From the NCBI GenBank assembly GCA_050290185.1, contig JBNKHE010000003.1, forward strand, positions 64,001 to 128,000: a stretch of DNA of 64,000 nt, read 5' to 3'. The stretch comes from Pontiella sp. (lineage in GTDB: Bacteria; Verrucomicrobiota; Kiritimatiellia; Kiritimatiellales; Pontiellaceae). The notes under the pieces are model-generated. The model was not told the origin of the DNA and did no database searches. It saw nothing but the letters and a program-made list of their open reading frames with translations. Below are positions 304 through 25,845 of this stretch, piece by piece (position 1 is the first letter of the stretch; each line of letters starts with the position of its first letter). Both the position numbers and the translations under genes were made by a program.

Positions 304-669
304 ATGCGTGACTATACAAAAATTAAAGCCTGGGCCTTGGCAGACGATTTTGCTGTCGAGGTGTATCGGCGTACAGCCAGTTTCCCGTCCGACGAAAAAT
401 ATGCACTGACTTCACAGGTCCGCCGGGCTGCGTATTCTGTAGCTGCCAACTTAGCGGAGGGGGCAGGACGGAGGACAAAAAAGGATTTCGTTCGCTTTCT
501 TGATATGGCGCTGGGGTCGGCCAATGAGGCGACATACTTTATTCATTTATCCCACCGGCTCGCATATCTTGATTCTGGCTCGTTTACTGTTTTAAGGGAT
601 CAGGCCGCATCGGTTAGCAGATGCTTGTCATCCTATATTCGAGCTGTTGAGAAAGATGTTAACCAATAA
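304..669 (+). CDS. Four-helix-bundle protein (TIGR02436 / 23S-rRNA-IVP / Avd-like family)
   Basis: 121 aa with family motifs FPSDEKYALTSQVRRAAYSVAANLAEG, F-x-RFL-x-MALGS-x-x-E. Confidence 0.92.
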   Translation: MRDYTKIKAWALADDFAVEVYRRTASFPSDEKYALTSQVRRAAYSVAANLAEGAGRRTKKDFVRFLDMALGSANEATYFIHLSHRLAYLDSGSFTVLRDQAASVSRCLSSYIRAVEKDVNQ

Positions 670-13329: not shown

Positions 13330-15753
13330 ATGACTGTACTTTTCTTGTATATCATCACATTGTGCTCATTCACCTTCTATGGCGTGGTGGGCGAGGACAA
13401 GACATGGTTGCTGGCGCCTTTGTTTCTTTTCAGCTATGCGGCAATTACGATTGCCTTGCTGAAAAGAGCATCCTCCTTCGCTCAAGCTTCAGCGGACAGA
13501 TTTGGCATGGGGCATGGCAATGAGAAGCTAAGAGCTAATAGCCAACAGCCAACAGCCGGAGCATTGCTTATCCTTTTTCTCCTATGGGGAATAGCAATGA
13601 TCCCCCAGGCAACGGTGCCTTTCGAGTCAAAGCTGGTGATGCTGTTCATCGGCGGGGTGGTGGGGGCTTATCTCGTATGGGGCGGGGAACTGACGACGTT
13701 CAAGGACAACCGGCTTCTGTTGGGCTTCCTGATCTTTGTCGTGATGGGACTGGCGCTGTATGGCCTGATCATCTATTTCCGTTGCCCGGACAGGATCCTA
13801 TGGACGGAACGGTATGCCGACTATCCCGGTCGCTTGGCGTCGACCTATATCTGCCCGAATCACTTTGCCCATTTGATGCAGATGCTGATGCCGTTCTGCG
13901 CGGCGTTGCTGTTCATTCCCCAGACGGGCATCTTTCTGCGCCTGCTGGCGGGATATAGTTTGCTGGTGTTTCTTCCGCCCTTGTTCCTGACCGAATCGCG
14001 CGCAGGGTGGCTGGGTTCGATTGTCGGGGTGGGGGTCGTAGCCTGCCTGATGGCGCTGCGCCGCAGCAAAAAGTTGTTCCTGCTCCTGGTGATCTTCGTC
14101 CCGTTGTGTTCAACGCTCATCCTGTTCGCGGGATGGCGGTTTTCCGAAACCTTCCACCGCCGGGTCACACCGGTCGTGGAATTCCTGAAGTATCAGGGTG
14201 AAGAGGGCGTTGGCAGCGAGTCGAAGGATTTCCGGCCGCAGACCTGGATGGATACGATCGATATGGTCAAGGAGGCCCCGCTGATCGGTTTCGGACCGGG
14301 GAACTACCGGTATACTTTTCCAGAGCACCGCAATCGCTTCAAAGGACGCCAGGTTGTTACCGGCCACCCGCACAATGAATATCTGGAACTGATCGCGGAT
14401 TATGGGCTGATTGGATTTGCCCTGTTTGCCCTGGCCTGGATCTATGGTTTGATCCGGATCCTGATTGCGTCGTTGAAGTCGGAGGAAGTGCGCCATGCCT
14501 TCATCGGCTTTGCCTTTGTCGGCACCGCCGCTGGAACGATGGTCCACTCCTTCTTCGACTTCGAGATGCATGTGTATCCCAACGCGCTTGTTTTCGCGTT
14601 GCTGGCCGCCTTGGCCTGGGGACCGTTGGCCGCGCAGAAGGCAAAAGGCGTCAGGCGTCGGGCCCGGGACTCCAGAGACCATGAACCGCAAACGGCCAAC
14701 TCCAAACTTCACGCTGCATTTTCACACAGAGATAGCAGAGATAACGGAGGGCAGAAGTCAGCAGCCAGCTCCGAACTGTTGGTTCAAAATGATTCCCCAA
14801 CAATCAGCAACGTTCAACGTTCAACATTTAACGTGCAGCGTTTAGCAACATGGCTCCTTGCCATCGGCTACCTGTCGTTAACCGTTCTCTGTCTTCAGAC
14901 CATGTCGTCCGCCTTCATCCGTGCTATGGCGGATAAGAAGGTGGAGACATTGGTCACTCGCCATGCACCCAGCTCCAAGCTCCATGCACAGCATCTTTAC
15001 GAGCTGTCAGCTCGGATAGATGCTGCGAACTGGCGGGCGTACAAGGGGATGGCGGATTTACTCTCTAATCAGCGTTACTATTCGCTCGATATGGAGGAGA
15101 AGGTCCAGCTGGCCGAGGAGGAGCGTGGTTGGTACGAGAAGACCTATGTGCAGAATCCGAAGGATCCGGAGCTCATCTCTGCCTACGGAAAATGTCTCAT
15201 TTTTCTCGGAAATGCCGAGAGCATGGGACATAGGGCAGGGAGTCGGGTGGAAGAAATATCACGCAGCGATAGCGGAGACAGCGGAGAGGATAATGCAAAA
15301 CAAACGCTCTCTGTTAACGCTGTGCGAGATAATGATTCATTTACACCTGCAGAACTAATCGATCATGGACTGGAGCTGCTCCGCGAAGCGTGCAGCTACC
15401 GCCCATTCAACGATGTCTACTGGTGGACGCTGGGCGTGGAGTTGCGTAAGCTGGGTCGCTACGAAGAAGCGTTGGACGTATTTAAAAAGGCGCAGTCGAT
15501 CCGCCGTACGCCAACGACGGTCGCCAATATAAAGTGGATCGAGAAGCAGATAGCCCTTCGGCTTCACTCAGGGCAGGCAGGGGACGGGAGAAAGGACGCA
15601 GGAGCCAGGGAGCAGGAATCTGAGCCGGCAGAAAGGGAACCTCAAACCGCAAACCCCAAACCGCAAACCTCAACGAACTTCGTCCTCCCCGACCCGACCA
15701 ACGCAGCGGCTGATCCGGGGTTGATGAAGCTGCTTGACCAAATGGAAGAATAG
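13330..15753 (+). CDS. O-antigen ligase (WaaL/Wzy_C) family protein with C-terminal TPR-like region; several repeat-derived insertions
   Basis: TYICPNHFA, LTESRAGWLG, GFGPGNY, HPHNEYLELIADYGLIG, VHSFFDF; helical repeats at C-terminus; start uncertain. Confidence 0.85.
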   Translation: MTVLFLYIITLCSFTFYGVVGEDKTWLLAPLFLFSYAAITIALLKRASSFAQASADRFGMGHGNEKLRANSQQPTAGALLILFLLWGIAMIPQATVPFESKLVMLFIGGVVGAYLVWGGELTTFKDNRLLLGFLIFVVMGLALYGLIIYFRCPDRILWTERYADYPGRLASTYICPNHFAHLMQMLMPFCAALLFIPQTGIFLRLLAGYSLLVFLPPLFLTESRAGWLGSIVGVGVVACLMALRRSKKLFLLLVIFVPLCSTLILFAGWRFSETFHRRVTPVVEFLKYQGEEGVGSESKDFRPQTWMDTIDMVKEAPLIGFGPGNYRYTFPEHRNRFKGRQVVTGHPHNEYLELIADYGLIGFALFALAWIYGLIRILIASLKSEEVRHAFIGFAFVGTAAGTMVHSFFDFEMHVYPNALVFALLAALAWGPLAAQKAKGVRRRARDSRDHEPQTANSKLHAAFSHRDSRDNGGQKSAASSELLVQNDSPTISNVQRSTFNVQRLATWLLAIGYLSLTVLCLQTMSSAFIRAMADKKVETLVTRHAPSSKLHAQHLYELSARIDAANWRAYKGMADLLSNQRYYSLDMEEKVQLAEEERGWYEKTYVQNPKDPELISAYGKCLIFLGNAESMGHRAGSRVEEISRSDSGDSGEDNAKQTLSVNAVRDNDSFTPAELIDHGLELLREACSYRPFNDVYWWTLGVELRKLGRYEEALDVFKKAQSIRRTPTTVANIKWIEKQIALRLHSGQAGDGRKDAGAREQESEPAEREPQTANPKPQTSTNFVLPDPTNAAADPGLMKLLDQMEE

Positions 15754-15941: not shown

Positions 15942-17051
15942 ATGTTAATGCACTTTACCATAATCACCCCATCCTTCAACCAGCTCGGCTATCTCAAACG
16001 GTGTGTGGCTTCAGTCGCTGATCAAGTGACTGAAAGCATGGAACATGGAGCGGGGCGCATAGAGGTGTGCCACCATGTTCAGGACGGTGGTTCGACGGAT
16101 GGTGCCCGCGAATGGCTGGAGTGTTATGCGAACGAAGTCCGCGAGCAAAATACAGAGGACACAGGACAGAGGACGGAGGACTGCTCCCCTAATGCCGAAT
16201 GTCTAGCGCCTGGTGCCTACACTTTCACGTATGCAAGTGCACCGGATAACGGGATGTATGATGCGATCAACAAAGGTGTGGCCTTTGCGTTAAATCGGTC
16301 TACGACCTCGTTGAATTCGTTAAAGCAGGCTTCGCCTTCGTTAAATCCGTGCCCGAACGATTTCAACGTCTTGAACCTTCAACATTCAACGAAACCTCGC
16401 GACAGCGTGATCGCCTGGCTGAACTGCGACGAACAGTATCTGCCAGGAACCCTGCATAAGGTGGCGGTTTTTTTTGAGCAGCATCCGGAGGTGGATATTG
16501 TGTTCGGTGGCATGCTGATGGTGGATGAGGCTGGAAAGCTGCTGGCTTGCCGCAAGGCCATGCCGATGCGGCGGTTGTTCCTTGAGGCGTCTTATTTATA
16601 TAACTATTCCTGTGCGATGTTTTTTCGTCGATCGGCGTGGGAGAAGTTGGGCGGATTCGATTCAGCCTATCGCAATGCCGGGGATGAAGAGCTGGTGCGA
16701 CGAGCGATGAAGCTGGGGATGAAGACTGCTGTAGTGGATGGTTATCTTTCGGTCTTTACCTATGCAGGGCACAACCTAAGTTCGGAGGGGACGTCCGCCG
16801 TTCAGGAGCATGAGCGACTGAAACAATCAGAATCCCGGGCAAGCCGGTGGCTCCGTTTACCGATCAATCTGGCCCGGCTGGCGGAAAAGTGGATGCGCGG
16901 AGGACTACATGAGCGCGGGGCTTTAGTCTTTGAAATCTACACGGACCCATTGGAAGCGCGCTCCCTTTTTGAAGAGGATAACCCAAGTTGCCACTGGCCT
17001 GGTGAGGTGAAGCCGTATCTGCTCAATCATAGATTGAGCGATAGGCGTTAG
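15942..17051 (+). CDS. Glycosyltransferase family 2 with repeat-derived insertions
   Basis: IITPSFNQ, QDGGSTDG, GMYDAINKG, WLNCDEQYLPG. Confidence 0.9.
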   Translation: MLMHFTIITPSFNQLGYLKRCVASVADQVTESMEHGAGRIEVCHHVQDGGSTDGAREWLECYANEVREQNTEDTGQRTEDCSPNAECLAPGAYTFTYASAPDNGMYDAINKGVAFALNRSTTSLNSLKQASPSLNPCPNDFNVLNLQHSTKPRDSVIAWLNCDEQYLPGTLHKVAVFFEQHPEVDIVFGGMLMVDEAGKLLACRKAMPMRRLFLEASYLYNYSCAMFFRRSAWEKLGGFDSAYRNAGDEELVRRAMKLGMKTAVVDGYLSVFTYAGHNLSSEGTSAVQEHERLKQSESRASRWLRLPINLARLAEKWMRGGLHERGALVFEIYTDPLEARSLFEEDNPSCHWPGEVKPYLLNHRLSDRR

Positions 17052-17067
17052 GTATAGGTGTTGGGTC
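17034..17067 (+). repeat. G/T-rich degenerate heptamers (TTAGGTA/TTGGGT) upstream of four-helix-bundle gene 2
   Basis: ttgagcg ataggcg ttaggta taggtg ttgggtc; approximately the reverse complement of the downstream CCCAATA/CCTAA units. Confidence 0.65.
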
Positions 17068-17128
17068 GCGGATGACAGATGGAAAACGTTGAGTCTTTAG
17101 AGTGATATTATCTTGAGCGGGATTTGTG

Positions 17129-17500
17129 ATGGGCGAGCAAGGTTTTAGGCAACTGCGTGTTTGGCAGGAGGCAAAGGCATTGGCTGTCGACGTATACTTG
17201 TTAATCCGAAAATCACTTGCCCTGGACAAGGATTGGGGCCTGAAGGATCAGATGCAGCGGTCTGCCGTATCTATTCCTTCCAATATCGCCGAGGGTGATG
17301 CCCGAAAATCCAACAAGGATTCTATTCGCTTCTTTCACATTGCTTTGGGATCTGCAGCAGAGCTAGCTACTCAGTTGGAGATAGCACTTGAACTTGGGTT
17401 CATCGATGAACTGCCATGCCATGGAATCATTAATCGACTAGATCAGTTGTCGAAAAGCCTTGGCGCTCTCGTCAAGGGGCGGCAACAGCCCAATACCTAA
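17129..17500 (+). CDS. Four-helix-bundle protein (TIGR02436 / Avd-like), second paralog
   Basis: FRQLRVWQEAK, DWGLKDQMQRSAVSIPSNIAEG, RFFHIALGSAAELATQL. Confidence 0.93.
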   Translation: MGEQGFRQLRVWQEAKALAVDVYLLIRKSLALDKDWGLKDQMQRSAVSIPSNIAEGDARKSNKDSIRFFHIALGSAAELATQLEIALELGFIDELPCHGIINRLDQLSKSLGALVKGRQQPNT

Positions 17501-17595
17501 AACCTACATATAATGTCAAAATCCAAACACCGAGCACCTCTTAATACCCAATACACTATGCCTGTATCCCAATACCCAATACCCAATACCCAATG
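17489..17595 (+). repeat. CCCAATA-family heptamer arrays starting at the end of four-helix-bundle gene 2; (CCCAATA)x3+CCCAATG at 17568-17595
   Basis: cccaata cctaaaa ccta; taataccc aatac; cccaata cccaata cccaata cccaatg. Confidence 0.9.
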
Positions 17596-18826
17596 TCCGA
17601 CGCGACACCGTCGCGTGGCTATCGATCTGGTTCCGATTCGTGTCGGCGAGGGCGGGACGGGGAGTGGGATCTGGACCTACGCCCGCGAGCTGCTCCTTGC
17701 GATGGATCGGTCGGAGGTCCATGAACTGGAAATCCTTGCGCTGGTCAATGAAGGCCAAGTGCCGTTTTTGTCGGATTTGAAACATATTCGGTTGGTGCGC
17801 TTTCGCGGGGGAGGAAAGAGCATCATCCGGCGATTGTTTTGGGTCCATCTGCAACTGCCGCTCCATTGCTTGTTCAGACGGGTGGATGTGCTCCATAAAC
17901 TGGCGACCGATACGCCGCTGTTTTGTCACTCCAAACGGGTGACCACCATCCACGATTTTTATTACGAGTTCTTGATGGAGCAGCGATCCAGGGAAAGCAT
18001 CCGGCTCTACGAACGTGTGGAGAGCGCTTATTTTTCGATGGTGACAAAAGCCTGCTTCAAGAAATCAAACGCCATTATTACCGTATCGAACGCCACCCGG
18101 GAAGAAGCGGTTCGACGCTATCCCGGTTCCAAAGATCGCATTGCCGTGATTCATCATGGGGCGCCGTACTTGCAGCCGATAGCCGATAGCCGACAGCCAA
18201 GAGCCAAAGAGTCATCCGCACTTCCGTCATCAACCATCAACCATCAATCATCAACGGATATTAAACGTGACGCGTTCAATATCCTCTGCGTCGCCAAGTT
18301 CATGGAACACAAGGGACAGCACCTTCTGCTCAAGGCGTTTGAGCGGTTGCTTGCAGAACACCCTGAGTGTGCGGACACGACCAGACTGACGCTCCGCGGT
18401 TTTCATAATGATTCTGACTATTACGAGGCGATTTGCCGAAAGATCAACGATAGCCGATATGCTTCGAATATTGATCTTGTGGCCTTCGATCCCAAGGACA
18501 CCATCGGGGACATATACCGTAATGCGGATCTGGTGGTTCTGCTTTCGGGTTATGAGGGATTTGGTCTGCCGGTTTTGGAGGCCCAGTCGATGGGCGTGCC
18601 CGTGTTGTGTTCCGACCTGCCGGTCTTGCGGGAGGTCGGTGGAGATGGAGCTGTATATGTAGCGAGGGACGATATAGAACGCGTGGCTAGAGCTATGCAT
18701 CGGTTTATTTTCGATGTCGATTATTATGATGCCCTGCGGAATGAAGCCTCTGGAAATATCCAGCGGTTTTCATGGAACTTAGCCGCCGAGAAGACCTTGA
18801 ATGCCTATGCAATCTGTTTCGCTTAG
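17513..18826 (+). CDS. Glycosyltransferase family 4 (mannosyltransferase-like); start uncertain (17513/17558/17615)
   Basis: VTTIHD, IITVSNAT, HKGQ, SGYEGFGLPVLEAQSMGVPV. Confidence 0.9.
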   Translation: MSKSKHRAPLNTQYTMPVSQYPIPNTQCPTRHRRVAIDLVPIRVGEGGTGSGIWTYARELLLAMDRSEVHELEILALVNEGQVPFLSDLKHIRLVRFRGGGKSIIRRLFWVHLQLPLHCLFRRVDVLHKLATDTPLFCHSKRVTTIHDFYYEFLMEQRSRESIRLYERVESAYFSMVTKACFKKSNAIITVSNATREEAVRRYPGSKDRIAVIHHGAPYLQPIADSRQPRAKESSALPSSTINHQSSTDIKRDAFNILCVAKFMEHKGQHLLLKAFERLLAEHPECADTTRLTLRGFHNDSDYYEAICRKINDSRYASNIDLVAFDPKDTIGDIYRNADLVVLLSGYEGFGLPVLEAQSMGVPVLCSDLPVLREVGGDGAVYVARDDIERVARAMHRFIFDVDYYDALRNEASGNIQRFSWNLAAEKTLNAYAICFA

Positions 18827-21161
18827 TTGGTTTATGTTCTGCCTGATCATTGCAGGGCTCCTTGTGGAACCTTCCGCAGCGGCCCGCACGGTCGGATTGG
18901 CTTCGATGCAGAATTTTGAGGATCTTCCAGTGATAGAAGAGGATGTCGATGTCTTTCAGGTTTCAAGTCATGACCGAACCGGCGCAAACGATGACGGGTT
19001 CAACGGGACTTATTCGAGCCTTTACCGGGATGAAGAGGGCGATTATGTGCTGTTCGACGAAATAGGCGCCGGATGCATTACGCGCATGTGGATGACTTTT
19101 TCGACGGCCAACCTCAATCCGACCAACCACATCCGATTCTATTTCGATGAGGATGCCGAACCGCGCATCGATGTCTCCCTTCAGGATTTCTTTCATGGGA
19201 CCACTGCTCCTTTTCTGAGTCCGCTGGTGGGGGATCGGTTGGTATCGAGTGGCGGTTATTATTGCTATCTGCCTTTCCCGTTCGCCCGTCGCTGCCGGAT
19301 CGAGATGGCGCACAAACCGTATTTCTACAACATCACCTGTCAGCGTTTTGCATCAACCAACGGCGTGGCTACCTGGACAGGGCTGGAGGAGAGTGCGGGT
19401 GTTCGCTCAATGTGGGAACACGTTGGCAGCGATCCAAAGCCGACGAACGGGAATGTTCAGGTCGATGGTATGTTATCGATTCCTGCCGGAACCACCGGCA
19501 CGGTGTTTTCCGTGCTGGGTGCCGGAGCGGTGGCTGGGCTGTTGCTGGATATCGAGCCGCACTCGGCAGAGGTGCTCACCAATGTCTGGATCGACATGGT
19601 GTGGGATGGCGAAGCAACGCCGCAGGTTTCGGCCCCGCTGGGCGAGTTTTTCGGATGTCGTTTCGGCGAGACCAATCTAACGGCACTTCCGGTTGGCATG
19701 AACACGAATACACCGTATTACTGCTGGTTTCCCATGCCGTTCTGGAGCTCCGCTCATATCGAGGTCGTGAATCATTCTTCGGTCGATATCACTAATCTGA
19801 CGTTTGAGGTCCAGTACCATAATCGGGCGTATGATGCATTGCGCACCGGTTGGTTCCATGCGGTGGCCCGCTCGAAGAATATCGTGCAGAGCGACGGAAA
19901 TGATTATGTTCTATTGGAGACCAATGGATGGGGCAAGGTGGTGGGTGTGGTGCTTTCAGTACGAAACAGGAGCACGGATCCATTGGGCTATTTGGAAGGC
20001 GATGAGCGTATCTATATTGATGGAAGCTCAACACCCCAGCTCTATGGAACGGGAACGGAGGATTTTTTCAACGGGGGATGGTACTTTAACCAGGGGCCAT
20101 TCTCTCTTCCCGTCCACGGGAACCCGATGCGTAAGCACGAGTGGAGACCGGATTGGAATGTGCCCCCCTACATCTCCAACAACTTTACCGCGGCGTATCG
20201 GTTCTTTCTTGCAGACTGCCTTTCTTTTCGCTCATCCATCCGGTTGGGGATGGAGCACGGCTATAATAATTCCCAGAAAGGAGAGTATTCCAGCGTGGTG
20301 TACTACTACCTGCTTCCATCACGCACAGGAATGGTTTTACGTACAGCACTGGATGTGGGGAATATATTCTCCGAGTCTGATGCAGACTATGTAAGCTCGG
20401 AAAGTATTCTGGTAACCAACAGCTGGCGATACGAAGGCGATGCTGACAACGATGTGGTTGTGGATGACGGTCGGATCATCTCGGATTCTTCAAGCTTTGC
20501 GGTGTCCCTATCGAGCACGAACATGGGACTGTTGATTCGCCGGCGGGCGGATGCGGTGCCTGGTCGTCAGCATGTGAAAGTATATGTGGATGAGGCGTTG
20601 GTCAGTGATTGGTATACTGCAGATTGTAATTTCACTAATTTAAACAGACGATGGTTTGATGCGGAATTGCAGATTCCGGCAGCGTACACCGCCGGAAAAA
20701 CATCGGTAACGGTCCGGTTGGAGAAGGATCTTTCATCTGCGGGACTTTGGAGTGAGTATCGATATTGGGTCTATAGTCTGGAGCCTTTGCTGCCCACAGG
20801 AGATCTGGATGCCGACGGCTTGCCGGATGAGTGGGAGATTTCATATTTCGACAATATTCTGGAGGCGGTTCCGGGGGAAGATGGCGACGGTGACGCAATG
20901 GGGAATTTGGCGGAGTATATAGCGGGAACCGATCCCTTGGATTCCGTATCGAACTTTCGCCTTCGAACCGATGCCGAAGCACTCTCTTTTCTTGCGCAAA
21001 CCGGACGGTCCTATACCCTATGGTATTCGTCTGATTTGCTTGCGGGTGAGTGGAGCGCGGCGGCGACCAACTTGCAAGGGAATGGAGTAATTGTTTTCTG
21101 GCCGTATCCCAAAAACGGAACAAACGGATTTTATCGAGCGGACGTACAGTTACAATGGTAG
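18801..21161 (+). CDS. Secreted DUF2961 / GH172-like glycoside hydrolase with C-terminal DxDGD/EYIAGTDP module
   Basis: Signal peptide; SSHDRTGANDDG, GAGCITRMW, WFPMPF, YLEGDE, GTGTEDFFNGGWYF. Confidence 0.8.
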   Translation: MPMQSVSLSWFMFCLIIAGLLVEPSAAARTVGLASMQNFEDLPVIEEDVDVFQVSSHDRTGANDDGFNGTYSSLYRDEEGDYVLFDEIGAGCITRMWMTFSTANLNPTNHIRFYFDEDAEPRIDVSLQDFFHGTTAPFLSPLVGDRLVSSGGYYCYLPFPFARRCRIEMAHKPYFYNITCQRFASTNGVATWTGLEESAGVRSMWEHVGSDPKPTNGNVQVDGMLSIPAGTTGTVFSVLGAGAVAGLLLDIEPHSAEVLTNVWIDMVWDGEATPQVSAPLGEFFGCRFGETNLTALPVGMNTNTPYYCWFPMPFWSSAHIEVVNHSSVDITNLTFEVQYHNRAYDALRTGWFHAVARSKNIVQSDGNDYVLLETNGWGKVVGVVLSVRNRSTDPLGYLEGDERIYIDGSSTPQLYGTGTEDFFNGGWYFNQGPFSLPVHGNPMRKHEWRPDWNVPPYISNNFTAAYRFFLADCLSFRSSIRLGMEHGYNNSQKGEYSSVVYYYLLPSRTGMVLRTALDVGNIFSESDADYVSSESILVTNSWRYEGDADNDVVVDDGRIISDSSSFAVSLSSTNMGLLIRRRADAVPGRQHVKVYVDEALVSDWYTADCNFTNLNRRWFDAELQIPAAYTAGKTSVTVRLEKDLSSAGLWSEYRYWVYSLEPLLPTGDLDADGLPDEWEISYFDNILEAVPGEDGDGDAMGNLAEYIAGTDPLDSVSNFRLRTDAEALSFLAQTGRSYTLWYSSDLLAGEWSAAATNLQGNGVIVFWPYPKNGTNGFYRADVQLQW

Positions 21162-21231
21162 CGAGCTTGAATATTCGATTGGGTGTACGTTGATAATAGA
21201 TGGCTTGGCACCGTATTTTCTGGAGTGGTCA

Positions 21232-23706
21232 ATGGGTACTTTTTTAATCAAATGGGGAAAATGGTTTACACCGGTCCTGGGATGCATTGCGGTCTTCCTG
21301 CTGCTGCACTACCTGCAAAAGATGGGGGGCTACCAATTGCCCGCGTGGATAGTGGGTACAATGGGCGCGGTGAGTGGAATTACCCTGCTCGGGTATCTAC
21401 TGCAACTACATGTATTGAACCGGATCGGGGGGGTGTTTCTTCTGGTAGTGGCCGTGGTATGTTTGGTGGGTATGTTGCTGCCGGCCGAAACCATAGGCGA
21501 ATATCCGCACAAAGCATCCGCAGTGGTTGCCCATGATTTCGACGCAGCCTGGAAAACGGTCTATGGCCATGACCTATTCAAGGAGTTCAGCCTGCACCGG
21601 AACCTGATGCAGTATGCCAAGAGCTTGTCCAGTTTCGATATTCACCGGGCGGGTCAGATGGGGCTGTTCGGTATTTTTGGCCTTGCGATGGGAATCTGCT
21701 TTCTCTTTCCCATAGACCCCTCCTCCCTCCGATGGCGCTATTCCAGTCGGGTTCTACTGCTGTGTGTTGCGGGAGCGCTATGGTCCTTGCTGCTGGAACT
21801 GTTGCAGACGCTATCACCAACGCGTGAAGTCTCTTTTGGGGGTTTTCTTGAGAGCACAATCGGGGTCTTCGCGGGGACGCTGCTGTTTGCTCTATGCAAC
21901 ACGGTCTATGTCTCTCGAAAAAGGATGCTTGAGGATCGGCGCTTCAACGTGCTCGGCGTAGGTATTGATGCCGTGGATATGGAGGACTGTCTTCAATTAT
22001 TTCAGGAGATCATCGGCCAACAGGCACTAGGCAATGGGCATAAGGCATTAGGAGAGAGGGCTAACAGCCAAGAGCCAAGAGCTGACAGCTCATACTACTA
22101 TCCCTCACAGGAGGAAACCGGGGGGTTGGATCTCGGAAGCGCGGCGCAGACTCCTAAATCGGAAATCGGAAATCGGAAATCGGAAATTATTCTATCTTCC
22201 GGTCTCAAAACCCGACTGCCGGCCATGACCACTGCGATGGGCGTGGCGGGGATCGTGGAGTCGCGCCGCAACCAGAAGCTCCAGCGCATCCTGAACGAAT
22301 CGGTGTTGAACACGCCTGACGGCATGCCGTTGGTCTGGTTGGGCAAATTGTTCGGCTATCGAAATGTCGAGCGCGTATATGGTCCCGATCTGCTGCGAGA
22401 TGCCTGTGCCTATGGGGTAGATAAAGGATGGCGGCACTATTTCTGGGGGGCTGCGCCGGGGATTGTCGAGAAACTAAAAGTAGTGCTGGAAGAGAAACAT
22501 CCCCTGATCCAGATTTCAGGGATCTGCTGTCCACCGTTTCGTCCGTTGACTCAGGAGGAAGAGGATGCGCTGGTGGAGGAAGTGAATTCAGCCGATACCG
22601 ATATTTTCTGGATCGGGATCAGCACGCCGAAGCAACTTTATTTCATGGATCATATCCGCGATCGGCTGAACTGCAAAGTCATCTGTCCGGTGGGATATGC
22701 CTTCGATGTGAATGCCGGGGTGGAGAAGGATGCGCCGGACTGGATCAAGTATGCCGGGCTTCAATGGCTGCACCGCGGGATCAAGCAACCGCGCCTCTGG
22801 AAACGCTATCTGCCGGACAATCCCGCGTTTGTACTCAAGGTCTTTTCCCAACTGCTGCACCTGAAACGGTTTACCATGTTCGTGCATGAACGCCCGATTG
22901 CCCCCGTAACCGATGCCGAAGGGTTCCCTCGTTTTCCGGCCGGTGCAGTGGCGCTGTCGGCCATGAGCATGCGTGGAGCGCGTGATCGCGTCGCACACTG
23001 GATCGAATCGGGGAAAAAACACTACGTCAATATCTGTACGGCGGATACCGTTGTGCAGTGCTACGACCGGCCCGACCTGGCAAAGATTGTGATGAATGCC
23101 GGGATGGCTACAACCGACGGTATGCCACTGGTTTGGCTTGCCCATCATTTTGGTTACACGGATGCGACGCGGGTCTATGGGCCGGATCTCATGCTTGAGC
23201 TTTGTGCCTTGAGCGAAATGAAGGGCTATGCCCATTATTTCTACGGGGCGACTGATGAGGTGCTGGAGCAATTACGGATAAACCTGCTGGAAAAGTATCC
23301 GCAACTGAAGATTGCGGGCATGTATGCTCCGCCTTTCCGTCCGCTCACCGATGCCGAGAAGGAGGACGTGGCGGAACGGATCAATGCCGCGAAGCCGGAC
23401 ATCGTCTGGTGCGGGCTGGGAACGCCCAAGCAGGACTACTGGGTGGCGGAATTCCGCCCGCGCCTGAATGCAGCCGCCATTCTGGCCGTGGGTGCTGCCT
23501 TCAACTTTCACGCCGGGCATGTGACACAGGCCCCGCGCTGGATGATGAAGTCCGGTTTGGAATGGCTTTTCCGCCTATGCGTTGAACCGCGTCGTCTCTG
23601 GCGCCGGTACATCATTGGCAATCCTCGTTTCGTTTGCCAAACCCTAAAGCAGTGGATCCGTGCGCGCCGAATTCGGAAACGGCTTGCCGCGATCGAAACT
23701 CCATAG
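21232..23706 (+). CDS. VanZ-like membrane domain fused to two WecB/TagA/CpsF (GT26) glycosyltransferase domains
   Basis: ELLQTLSPTRE (VanZ-like); two copies of DGMPLVWL..RVYGPDL..PPFRPLT..TPKQ..PRxLWxRY. Confidence 0.88.
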   Translation: MGTFLIKWGKWFTPVLGCIAVFLLLHYLQKMGGYQLPAWIVGTMGAVSGITLLGYLLQLHVLNRIGGVFLLVVAVVCLVGMLLPAETIGEYPHKASAVVAHDFDAAWKTVYGHDLFKEFSLHRNLMQYAKSLSSFDIHRAGQMGLFGIFGLAMGICFLFPIDPSSLRWRYSSRVLLLCVAGALWSLLLELLQTLSPTREVSFGGFLESTIGVFAGTLLFALCNTVYVSRKRMLEDRRFNVLGVGIDAVDMEDCLQLFQEIIGQQALGNGHKALGERANSQEPRADSSYYYPSQEETGGLDLGSAAQTPKSEIGNRKSEIILSSGLKTRLPAMTTAMGVAGIVESRRNQKLQRILNESVLNTPDGMPLVWLGKLFGYRNVERVYGPDLLRDACAYGVDKGWRHYFWGAAPGIVEKLKVVLEEKHPLIQISGICCPPFRPLTQEEEDALVEEVNSADTDIFWIGISTPKQLYFMDHIRDRLNCKVICPVGYAFDVNAGVEKDAPDWIKYAGLQWLHRGIKQPRLWKRYLPDNPAFVLKVFSQLLHLKRFTMFVHERPIAPVTDAEGFPRFPAGAVALSAMSMRGARDRVAHWIESGKKHYVNICTADTVVQCYDRPDLAKIVMNAGMATTDGMPLVWLAHHFGYTDATRVYGPDLMLELCALSEMKGYAHYFYGATDEVLEQLRINLLEKYPQLKIAGMYAPPFRPLTDAEKEDVAERINAAKPDIVWCGLGTPKQDYWVAEFRPRLNAAAILAVGAAFNFHAGHVTQAPRWMMKSGLEWLFRLCVEPRRLWRRYIIGNPRFVCQTLKQWIRARRIRKRLAAIETP
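22156..22187 (+). repeat. Perfect (AAATCGG)x4+AAAT tract inside the GT26 gene
   Basis: Direct reading; encodes KSEIGNRKSEI. Confidence 0.95.
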
Positions 23707-24048: not shown

Positions 24049-25845
24049 GTGCCAGTTCGCCGTTCCATATTAGTCCCGGTCTTGACCGCCATGCTGTTGT
24101 TTGTCGTGTATTCGTTCACGGCTCCGCAGAACCATAGCGAAGCTGAGGATGTTTACGATTTTGCGCTGAAGGTGGAGCAGGGGCATTTTGCAGATCAGGC
24201 CGGCGTGAACCGCGTGCTGGCGCTCCCTGCATTGGGGGTGGCGTACAGGGCCGCACAGTTGTTGGGATATGATGGCCGTGCCTTTCCATTCATGATCATC
24301 ATCAACCGTTTCCTCGCCGTAGTCTGTGTGTTTCTGTTCTACCACCTGCTCACTCTGGCGTACCGCAGGCATCCTGCCTTCCCTGGATCCGCTTCCCTTT
24401 CGCCTAATACCTTCCCAAACCATCAACCATCAACCAGCAACCAACAACTAGTAACCGCTCTTCTGTTGGCCTTCTCCTACGGCTTCTGGCGCTACGCCAA
24501 CGAAGCGGAAACCTACATCCTGGCAAGTGTTCTAGTGCTTGGAGCCTGGTGTCTGGCCATTGGCCAGCAATCAGCAATCAGCGACCGGCAGTCAGCAAAA
24601 GACAACGGTTCTCCGACTTCCTCCCTCCCTCCGGAACGTAGGCTCCTCCGGGCCGGAGGCCGTCCTTGGTTTACCCTCCTCTGTCCTCTGGTTTCCGCTT
24701 TCGGCATTCTGGTGCATCTACTGAACCTGGTGCCGCTGCTGTTGATCATACCCCTGTACTATCTGTTTTCCGGGAAATGGAAGAACGCAGTGTTTCATGG
24801 CCTGATGACAGGGGGGCTGGTCGGATTGGGCTACGGACTCTGCTTCCACATGCTGGATTGGGGCAATCTGGGCGCACATGATCAACCGTTGGAAGCCGGC
24901 TTCAGCCTTTCGAATGTGCTGCGCGGGGGTATCGCCTCCGGCCAATGCCTGGTATCGGGCAACTTCCTGTTCGGGTTCGAGTCGTTTCGTGATGCCCTGA
25001 TCAACCTGTTCCCTTCGCGCATGCTGGGGGAAGAGTTTTACATGGCGTCGCACATGCCTGACTGGATCAAATGGGCGGGGTGCGTGACGATCACAGCGTT
25101 TTCGGTTTGCAGTTTGTGGTTTGCGTTTAAGTGCTGGCAGAGCCAAAAGGCATGTTGGAGCAGTAGCGAAATGCAGTCTTCTGCTAACTTCAAAACGAAA
25201 AATTCAAACATACGGCCATTAACCATTTCATCCGCCATCTGGTTGCTCCTGTATGCTCTAGCCGTGATCCACACGGAGGCGGGTAGCCCGGAATTATGGA
25301 TCATGGCATTGATTCCCTTTTGGCTTATCGTCGCTCCGCTCCAACAAAGAGCATGGGGCATGGGGCATGGAGGAAGCACAATCGCTATGGATAGAACGGG
25401 CAGGATTTGCTCTTGGGGATTGGTCCTTGCACTTTTTTTACATAATCTGGTAGCGGGGTTGCTCCCCGTTATGTCAAACGCGTCCGACTATCATGTGGCC
25501 AAGGGAAAATGGCTGGTGGAGCACTGTGGCCCGCAGGATCTGATATTGACCGACTACGAGCCGGTAATGGTTTTTTACCTGGACTATTATGTAGCCGGCG
25601 ATGTGGTCAGCAGTGGGGCCATGAATGCGCCGGATATCGAGCGAAAGCTTGGAACGCGAACGGGAAACGCGTACGCTTTGGCTTCTTTTTTCCGGCCCAT
25701 GGAATCGATGCGGGTGCGCAACCCGAAGCAATATGCTCGAATGGTGGCGACCGGAGAAGCGCTGCAATCCGGGTTTGTAAAAATTGAAGACGATGAATTT
25801 GGTGGCGTGTGGGAGTTTAAGGAGCAGTTGAATATTGATAAATGA
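24049..25845 (+). CDS. Polytopic membrane protein, possibly GT-C-fold glycosyltransferase-like, with repeat-derived insertions
   Basis: Many TM segments; acidic EAEDVY after TM1; FSYGFWRYANEAETY. Confidence 0.6.
   Translation: MPVRRSILVPVLTAMLLFVVYSFTAPQNHSEAEDVYDFALKVEQGHFADQAGVNRVLALPALGVAYRAAQLLGYDGRAFPFMIIINRFLAVVCVFLFYHLLTLAYRRHPAFPGSASLSPNTFPNHQPSTSNQQLVTALLLAFSYGFWRYANEAETYILASVLVLGAWCLAIGQQSAISDRQSAKDNGSPTSSLPPERRLLRAGGRPWFTLLCPLVSAFGILVHLLNLVPLLLIIPLYYLFSGKWKNAVFHGLMTGGLVGLGYGLCFHMLDWGNLGAHDQPLEAGFSLSNVLRGGIASGQCLVSGNFLFGFESFRDALINLFPSRMLGEEFYMASHMPDWIKWAGCVTITAFSVCSLWFAFKCWQSQKACWSSSEMQSSANFKTKNSNIRPLTISSAIWLLLYALAVIHTEAGSPELWIMALIPFWLIVAPLQQRAWGMGHGGSTIAMDRTGRICSWGLVLALFLHNLVAGLLPVMSNASDYHVAKGKWLVEHCGPQDLILTDYEPVMVFYLDYYVAGDVVSSGAMNAPDIERKLGTRTGNAYALASFFRPMESMRVRNPKQYARMVATGEALQSGFVKIEDDEFGGVWEFKEQLNIDK

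Follow-up and report, generated by a model that had tools for sequence, protein, structure and literature searches.

A four-helix-bundle gene framed by inverted heptamer arms in a polysaccharide cluster of Pontiella sp.: a likely cassette with DNA ends rather than an RNA processing stem

Introduction

In contig JBNKHE010000003.1 of Pontiella sp. (GCA_050290185.1), a gene for a four-helix-bundle protein of the PF05635/TIGR02436 family, which is widespread but has no assigned function, stands between two glycosyltransferase genes and is bracketed by short tandem repeats that are approximately inverted relative to each other. The question raised by this locus is whether the repeats pair in messenger RNA (mRNA), in the manner of the intervening sequences (IVSs) of 23S ribosomal RNA (rRNA), or whether they mark the ends of a DNA cassette; a preliminary description had proposed both. 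The window analysed here is a stretch of 64,000 nt of this contig, and positions are given in window numbering unless a contig of the genome under study (G000; contigs C plus number) or a homologous locus of a relative (L plus number) is named. As set out below, the gene with its arms is present, absent or replaced at the junction, and the arms are likely, with moderate confidence, to serve as ends of DNA that the encoded protein recognises, and not as an RNA processing stem.

Results and Discussion

Empty and replaced sites at the GT2-GT4 junction

The locus belongs to a polysaccharide/O-antigen cluster in which an O-antigen ligase gene is followed by a GT2 glycosyltransferase gene (15942-17051), the 124-codon four-helix-bundle gene (17126-17500, starting at GTG 17126 or ATG 17129) and a GT4 glycosyltransferase gene (17513-18826, starting at ATG 17513 or 17558), the last three all on the plus strand. 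On the left, the units TTGAGCG (17034-17040), ATAGGCG (17041-17047), TTAGGTA (17048-17054), the six-nucleotide TAGGTG (17055-17060) and TTGGGTC (17061-17067) follow one another, and the stop codon of GT2 (TAG, 17049-17051) falls within TTAGGTA. The proximal right arm (17489-17506) is composed of CCCAATA (17489-17495), CCTAAAA (17496-17502), which contains the stop codon of the four-helix gene (17498-17500), and CCTA (17503-17506). Further downstream, the distal right arm (17547-17597), the predicted partner of the left arm, carries one CCCAATA at 17547-17553 and 3.9 copies at 17568-17594 and lies in the 5' coding region of GT4, which has an N-terminal extension of 15-30 residues that most orthologues lack.

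All of the units said in the preliminary description to bracket the gene were found in their places. TTGAGCG, however, is GT2 coding sequence: it encodes the conserved His-Arg-Leu tail of that gene's product, which is common to relatives without the cassette, and its predicted pairing is local. The left arm core is made up of the four G/T-rich units at 17041-17067, to which homologue L098 matches closely, while the remainder of the left flank (17068-17125) is a decayed mirror of the right flank with a single exact GACAGAT at 17074-17080. The whole flanks align as a decayed mirror image of each other.

Comparative analysis was based on 12 junctions in which this GT2 lies upstream of this GT4, duplicates being merged and loci where either gene occurs without the other left out. 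At seven of them (L066, L067, L070, L073, which equals L127, L128, L130 and L139) no gene intervenes, and in L073 the GT2 stop even overlaps the GT4 start; hence the empty-site alleles that the preliminary description had suggested looking for do exist. Another three junctions hold a methyltransferase-like open reading frame (ORF; named by eye), and around those of L022 and L087 no such arms were seen by eye. A four-helix cassette occupies each of the remaining two, the window and L129. The slot gene of L129 is 31% identical to that of the window and its arms use a different repeat word, whereas the neighbouring genes are 58-60% identical. In both filled alleles the left arm begins within a few bases of the His-Arg-Leu codons, on their downstream side, and it is the arm that contributes the stop of GT2; in the window it contributes the final codons of that gene as well. 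Since the distant relatives are empty, the insertion represents the derived state.

Two of these loci deserve separate mention. In the 62-nt "empty" spacer of L070 (2508-2570), weak heptamer-like units rich in purines are visible, so that a cassette may have been lost there and left a scar, in place of a site that was never filled. Upstream of GT4 in L022 (5440-5510), a single array with the word of the L129 type, oriented like a left arm, is found without a gene, adjoining an N-terminal extension related to that of the window; array and extension are possibly layered scars of earlier cassettes.

The repeat word follows the protein clade

The L129 slot gene matches that of a second four-helix cassette of the window (304-669, plus strand) at 88 of 119 residues (74%), and the two share the word AGCYAAY. 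Their arms cross-score at 37 and 39, against 22 and 24 with the 17126-17500 cassette; the motif for this word was written after both cassettes had been seen, a bias of which the cross-scores are free. In a tree of 67 proteins, the window protein is placed in a clade of 6 rows (support 96/95), nested in a clade of 9 rows (97/81) that spans three phyla. The motif written from the window's arms alone, scored at 70 of 75 loci, occurred at least twice in all 8 other clade members versus 8 of 62 loci outside the clade, with a genome background of 0.11 per 320 nt. The six closest clade members have six different pairs of neighbours, and the five closest homologues keep the word of the window in five other slots.

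Exchange is not confined to the GT2-GT4 slot. The NeuB-flippase slot is occupied by the window's clade in L099 and by a 40% identical homologue with CCTAAAA in L102, the ligase-GT2 slot of L069 holds a third type (assigned by motif only), and an AA-kinase/aminotransferase-III junction, presumably argB-argD, is filled in five congeners and empty in the window's genome. The slot swaps and the sharing of words across slots imply that gene and arms travel together, and they very probably move as one unit. The suggestion that the repeats mark cassette ends is thereby upheld by the empty sites, by the different cassette in the slot of L129 and by the joint movement of word and protein clade. At the ruvA-ruvB junction, four-helix cassettes were observed in L113 and L120 and a gene-less hairpin in the window's genome (C2:152284-152407).

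The layout was also examined family-wide, at 34 of 44 homologous loci (nine partial matches and one short flank being dropped) together with five copies of the genome itself. Flank inversion exceeded the 95th percentile of control genes at 24 of these 39 loci and the 99th at 22, and inverted arms flank all five above-cut-off family genes of the genome, the word differing from gene to gene. Four of these five are situated within 27 kb (C3:54968-81464) of the polysaccharide region. In L099, L100, L102, L109, L112 and L121, a complete hairpin stands on one or both sides of the gene (hairpin-gene-hairpin, the arrangement of the REP-RAYT loci considered below) instead of the gene lying in the loop.

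One must bear in mind that the gene might simply be a passenger of homologous recombination between polysaccharide clusters and conserved operons, with arms that are slippage repeats and chance fold-back duplications and play no part in its movement. The cluster is indeed patchy (the GT4 orthologue occurs in 9 of 89 genomes of the order), other genes enter the junction as well (3 of 12), and heptamer arrays are common: at lag 7 the genome contains 80, compared with 1, 3, 7 and 7 at lags 5, 8, 10 and 11, many without a four-helix gene and several as gene-less hairpins. Such passive shuffling, however, leaves unexplained why the word tracks the protein clade, and neither slot nor host genome, in both directions, why every above-cut-off family gene of the genome has inverted arms with a word of its own, and why no such arms were seen by eye around the methyltransferase-like inserts of L022 and L087, and it seems rather improbable.

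Pairing between the two sides

The co-folding of 17030-17070 with 17485-17600 proposed in the preliminary description gave -30.2 kcal/mol, a value equalled by 92 of 1000 shuffles and therefore not significant. Of its sub-windows, the proximal one was matched by 1 of 1000 shuffles (19 of 1000 when the downstream side alone was shuffled) and the distal one by 24 of 1000. For the whole flanks (17034-17125 with 17480-17611), the energy was -54.2 kcal/mol versus -41.7±4.5 in shuffles, 6 of 500 being as good, while the 591-nt fold of the whole unit reached a z of -1.54 (7 of 100 shuffles as good). Compared with 600 ordinary genes of the genome, the Watson-Crick inverted-repeat score of 25 was reached by seven but the duplex energy by 352. 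When arms of different loci were crossed, the window's own pair did not prove specific: among 39 it came 5th in inversion score and 19th in energy. The approximate reverse complementarity of the two sides is thus confirmed in part: the inversion is real but modest, and weaker than an IVS stem. The predicted stem joins 17044-17094 with 17546-17597, most pairs having a probability of 0.5-0.85; 17044-17066 are joined to 17574-17597, within the first codons of GT4, and the stem is interrupted by A·C mismatches and bulges, the longest run being 10 bp.

If an RNA stem of the sense strand were under selection, G·U should outnumber A·C, for which reason the ratio of these mismatches was used as a test, with an aligner blind to both types, at the 52 of 71 loci that exceeded the cut-off. 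Their arms contained 68 G·U and 90 A·C mismatches, 14 loci being G·U-biased and 20 A·C-biased, whereas 132 terminator-like hairpins of the genome contained 71 and 47 (Fisher p 0.005 against the arms). In none of six settings, one of them restricted to a single locus per clade, did the arms show a G·U excess; it should be noted that periodic arms can align out of register and that the loci are related. The mismatches fit two independently drifting double-stranded site arrays better than a selected RNA helix.

These results bear directly on the possibility of IVS-like processing, in which the arms would pair in the transcript and RNase III would cut the gene out, with the effect of dividing the mRNA of the polysaccharide operon into segments or of adjusting GT4. 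The predicted stem, a whole-flank duplex that beats 494 of 500 shuffles, an RNase III gene in the genome (C7:147106) and cassettes that are mostly sense to their host genes all speak for it. So does the IVS of Coxiella: it encodes the same protein family and carries tandem heptamers with the RNase III site at the first repeat (PMC4990558), which makes the link to the 23S IVS family drawn in the preliminary description a fair one. Its heptamer word, GACAGAT, occurs once in the window flank, at 17074 (expected 0.003; noticed post hoc), and at 1 of 70 other loci. Apart from the missing G·U excess, however, the longest unbroken helix of 10 bp compares poorly with the near-perfect 28-bp stem of Coxiella, a cut in the distal arm would hit the GT4 frame if this begins at 17513 or 17558, and related arrays and hairpins lie in frame inside intact genes. 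Processing of this kind is therefore considered unlikely.

The position of the CCCAATA array in the first codons of GT4 could also indicate a contingency locus, with slipped-strand changes switching GT4 and the inverted layout being incidental. Although a surface-polysaccharide gene here contains 3.9 perfect in-frame copies, and the number of units varies in the Coxiella IVS (PMC4990558), the array is short, translation could avoid it by starting at an in-frame GTG in the conserved start region, and the slot swaps would be left unexplained, so that this proposal is very improbable. No indel or joint across the cassette was present in four DNA runs, but these were searched as contigs, which drop rare variants, two of the four being flagged as possible sources, and are not used as evidence. 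Between 15400 and 18900 there was no Rfam match, and a promoter/terminator scan remained at chance level (1 and 1 found, 1.2 and 0.9 expected).

The four-helix-bundle protein and a possible mechanism

The product of the small gene matches PF05635 (E 2e-33, 115 bits against a cut-off of 33.8) and TIGR02436 (113.7 bits against 24), and its nearest homologues are from Kiritimatiellales. R43, S47, N51 and E54 are invariant in 52 aligned rows, which fits the family motif RxxxSxxxNxxE (PMC3936711). An alignment-based structure model with a predicted local distance difference test (pLDDT) score of 94.6 gave template modelling (TM) scores of 0.89 to Xcc0516 (2GSC), 0.81 to 2RLD and 0.74 to Avd (4DWL), the latter being 11% identical in sequence; it replaced a poor single-sequence fold (pLDDT 68.6). 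A profile search of PDB sequences did not reach Avd. The isoelectric point (pI) is 8.1 and the net charge +1, and the proteins of the family are near neutral (net -4 to +7). PF05635 was the only Pfam match of the cassette gene, with no transposase, HUH nuclease or recognised nuclease or recombinase motif, and the four Y1 transposase matches of the genome are all on contigs other than that of the cassette.

We infer each molecular step of the mechanism that the favoured reading, DNA ends recognised by the protein, would involve. The protein, a predicted homopentamer like Xcc0516 and Avd, might bind, at each end, the tandem array of its own word, and protein binding or hairpin extrusion of the arms could expose the junction to host recombination or repair, whose enzymes would cut and join; host enzymes are invoked because the cassette lacks a recognised nuclease or recombinase motif. 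Insertion would take place directly after the final conserved codons of the gene upstream, which would receive its new stop from the left arm, and the inserted gene would be read from the host operon transcript. Later, slippage may lengthen the arms and decay erode them, so that gene-less hairpins and in-frame arrays stay behind; of the copies that land in rRNA, only those excised by RNase III would persist, as the known IVSs. The structural relative Avd is reported to bind both DNA and RNA as a pentamer (PMC5758913).

Avd is at the same time the basis of another proposal, an element with an RNA intermediate, in which an Avd-like protein would bind the cassette RNA and recruit a reverse transcriptase (RT) in trans, the cDNA integrating at junctions of transcribed operons. 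In its favour are the fold shared with Avd, the partner of the RT of diversity-generating retroelements (DGRs), the sense orientation of the cassettes and the existence of rRNA-resident members (bioRxiv 10.1101/2024.02.27.582315). Against it, RT fragments alone were detected, on two tiny contigs (C159 and C64) and none near a cassette, the protein is neither basic nor close to Avd in sequence, and the arms lack an RNA-stem signature; an RNA intermediate is accordingly held to be quite improbable.

Several observations weigh against arms that act as protein-recognised DNA ends. Fifteen of the 39 loci are below the inversion cut-off, and some homologues have direct arrays only or a self-contained hairpin on one side. 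In the G·U test, the window locus itself (score 25) does not reach the cut-off, the terminator-like hairpins give a modest control and the rRNA/23S control, with 6 windows, is too small. Most cassettes point the same way as their host genes (47 of 64 scored versus 840 of 1954 in the background); the count is noisy, antisense ORFs having been miscalled where co-orientation is known, and an RNA route would account for the shared orientation equally well. No close empty allele is available: the glycosyltransferase genes are 43-60% identical, and the empty alleles are too diverged for a target duplication or the exact ends to be read. Since a related GT4 extension is present in L022, where no cassette adjoins it, the distal array may be older than the insertion in the window. 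The binding of Avd is without sequence specificity, and Avd is basic, with a mean pI of 9.5 (PMC5758913). Finally, kin share words by descent, so that the agreement of word and clade demonstrates co-travel and not the reading of the word by the protein.

Comparison with known systems

Among known systems, the ORF-bearing 23S IVSs of Coxiella and Leptospira (PMC4990558) resemble the cassette in their PF05635/S23p protein, in a gene enclosed between complementary ends, in the heptamers repeated in tandem at the 5' end, in their sporadic occurrence and in the lack of a known mobility enzyme. IVS-type insertions occur in the 16S and 23S rRNA genes of the candidate phyla radiation (CPR) as well (10.1101/2024.02.27.582315). 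Unlike these, the window cassette lies outside rRNA, between two protein genes, its stem is imperfect, any excision would not be needed for host function and cassettes swap in one slot; the assembled part of the genome's own 23S gene has no such insertion. In its workings the cassette is like an ORF-bearing IVS transplanted from rRNA, although its location sets it apart from that group, and the ORF-bearing 23S IVSs look like rRNA-resident members of the cassette class.

With Avd of DGRs (PMC5758913, PMC10053308) the protein shares the four-helix fold and pentameric relatives (2GSC, 2RLD), but no RT or template/variable repeats are adjacent and the neighbours are glycosyltransferases. The TAACTGA heptamer repeats of Beggiatoaceae (PMC4679880) are likewise 7-base tandem units at gene junctions, often right before the start codon, and their author suggests that a repeat-binding protein may be the mobile element. 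Those are described as direct repeats, however, whereas inverted pairs around a gene and clade-own words are found here, and a word search of PMC4679880 gave no mention of four-helix, S23, IVP or intervening. Four-helix genes are also scattered between cas genes (PMC3936711), in passages that mention no repeats, and this is consistent with junction insertion.

The four-helix cassette meanwhile behaves as mobile cassettes in general do, since filled and empty alleles and the same unit at several loci were all encountered. Further intergenic heptamer direct repeats are the short tandemly repeated repetitive (STRR) sequences of cyanobacteria. In repetitive extragenic palindromic (REP)/REPIN elements with their REP-associated tyrosine transposases (RAYTs), and in Rickettsia palindromic elements, a gene is flanked by its own palindromic repeats, with gene-less copies genome-wide, some of them in frame in proteins. 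RAYT is an HUH nuclease; for the four-helix protein, by contrast, no catalytic motif is known, and the cassette arms are tandem heptamers. Identity as part of a DGR, as an insertion sequence or as a RAYT was rejected, there being no adjacent RT, template or variable repeats and no transposase or HUH nuclease in the cassette. A scan of viral contigs, made once and with a single-protein query, gave 13 pattern matches, none of which was confirmed. In the literature, mostly open papers without supplements, no account of inverted heptamer arms around PF05635 genes outside rRNA was met with; new from this locus are the reciprocal case of two cassettes in one slot and the negative test of RNA pairing.

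Other arrays in the window and genome

In-frame arrays of 7- or 9-base units and gene-less hairpins occur in the ligase, GT2, GT4 and later genes (15575-15690, 16040-16220, 16280-16400 and 18165-18260), with more at 13540, 14808, 22066-22187 and 24418-24598. Those of the ligase, GT2 and GT4 lie at loops that are short in distant orthologues, and in GT2 and GT4 relatives have other insertions at the same loops. Arrays inside ORFs are A/C-rich on the sense strand by 29 to 5. Doublets of the window cassette's word are not clearly enriched genome-wide (18 versus 12 for a reversed control). In contig C2 (323004-323348; L125:1460-1890), a gene for a GxxExxY PD-(D/E)xK nuclease lies within a near-perfect inverted repeat of 9-base units, the same gene-in-loop layout as in the four-helix cassette, and a similar word is in frame in GT2 at 16149-16181. 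Downstream, a single ORF (21091-23706) combines a VanZ-like domain with two WecG/TagA/CpsF domains, and the same gene is near GT4 in several relatives.

Implications

Taken at its widest, the locus could belong to a widespread self-mobilising class, in which a non-catalytic pentameric ring protein would read its own heptamer word at both ends and drive insertion or replacement at gene junctions with the help of host enzymes, rRNA IVSs, bacterial heptamer repeats and Avd being offshoots; this extension is offered tentatively and is rather doubtful. For testing it, the locus offers suitable material in a single slot, which is empty in some alleles and in others holds one of two cassettes that differ in their word. 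If true, the proposal would give a function to a common protein family, an origin to the ORF-bearing rRNA IVSs and a source to heptamer repeats that have been noted without a mechanism.

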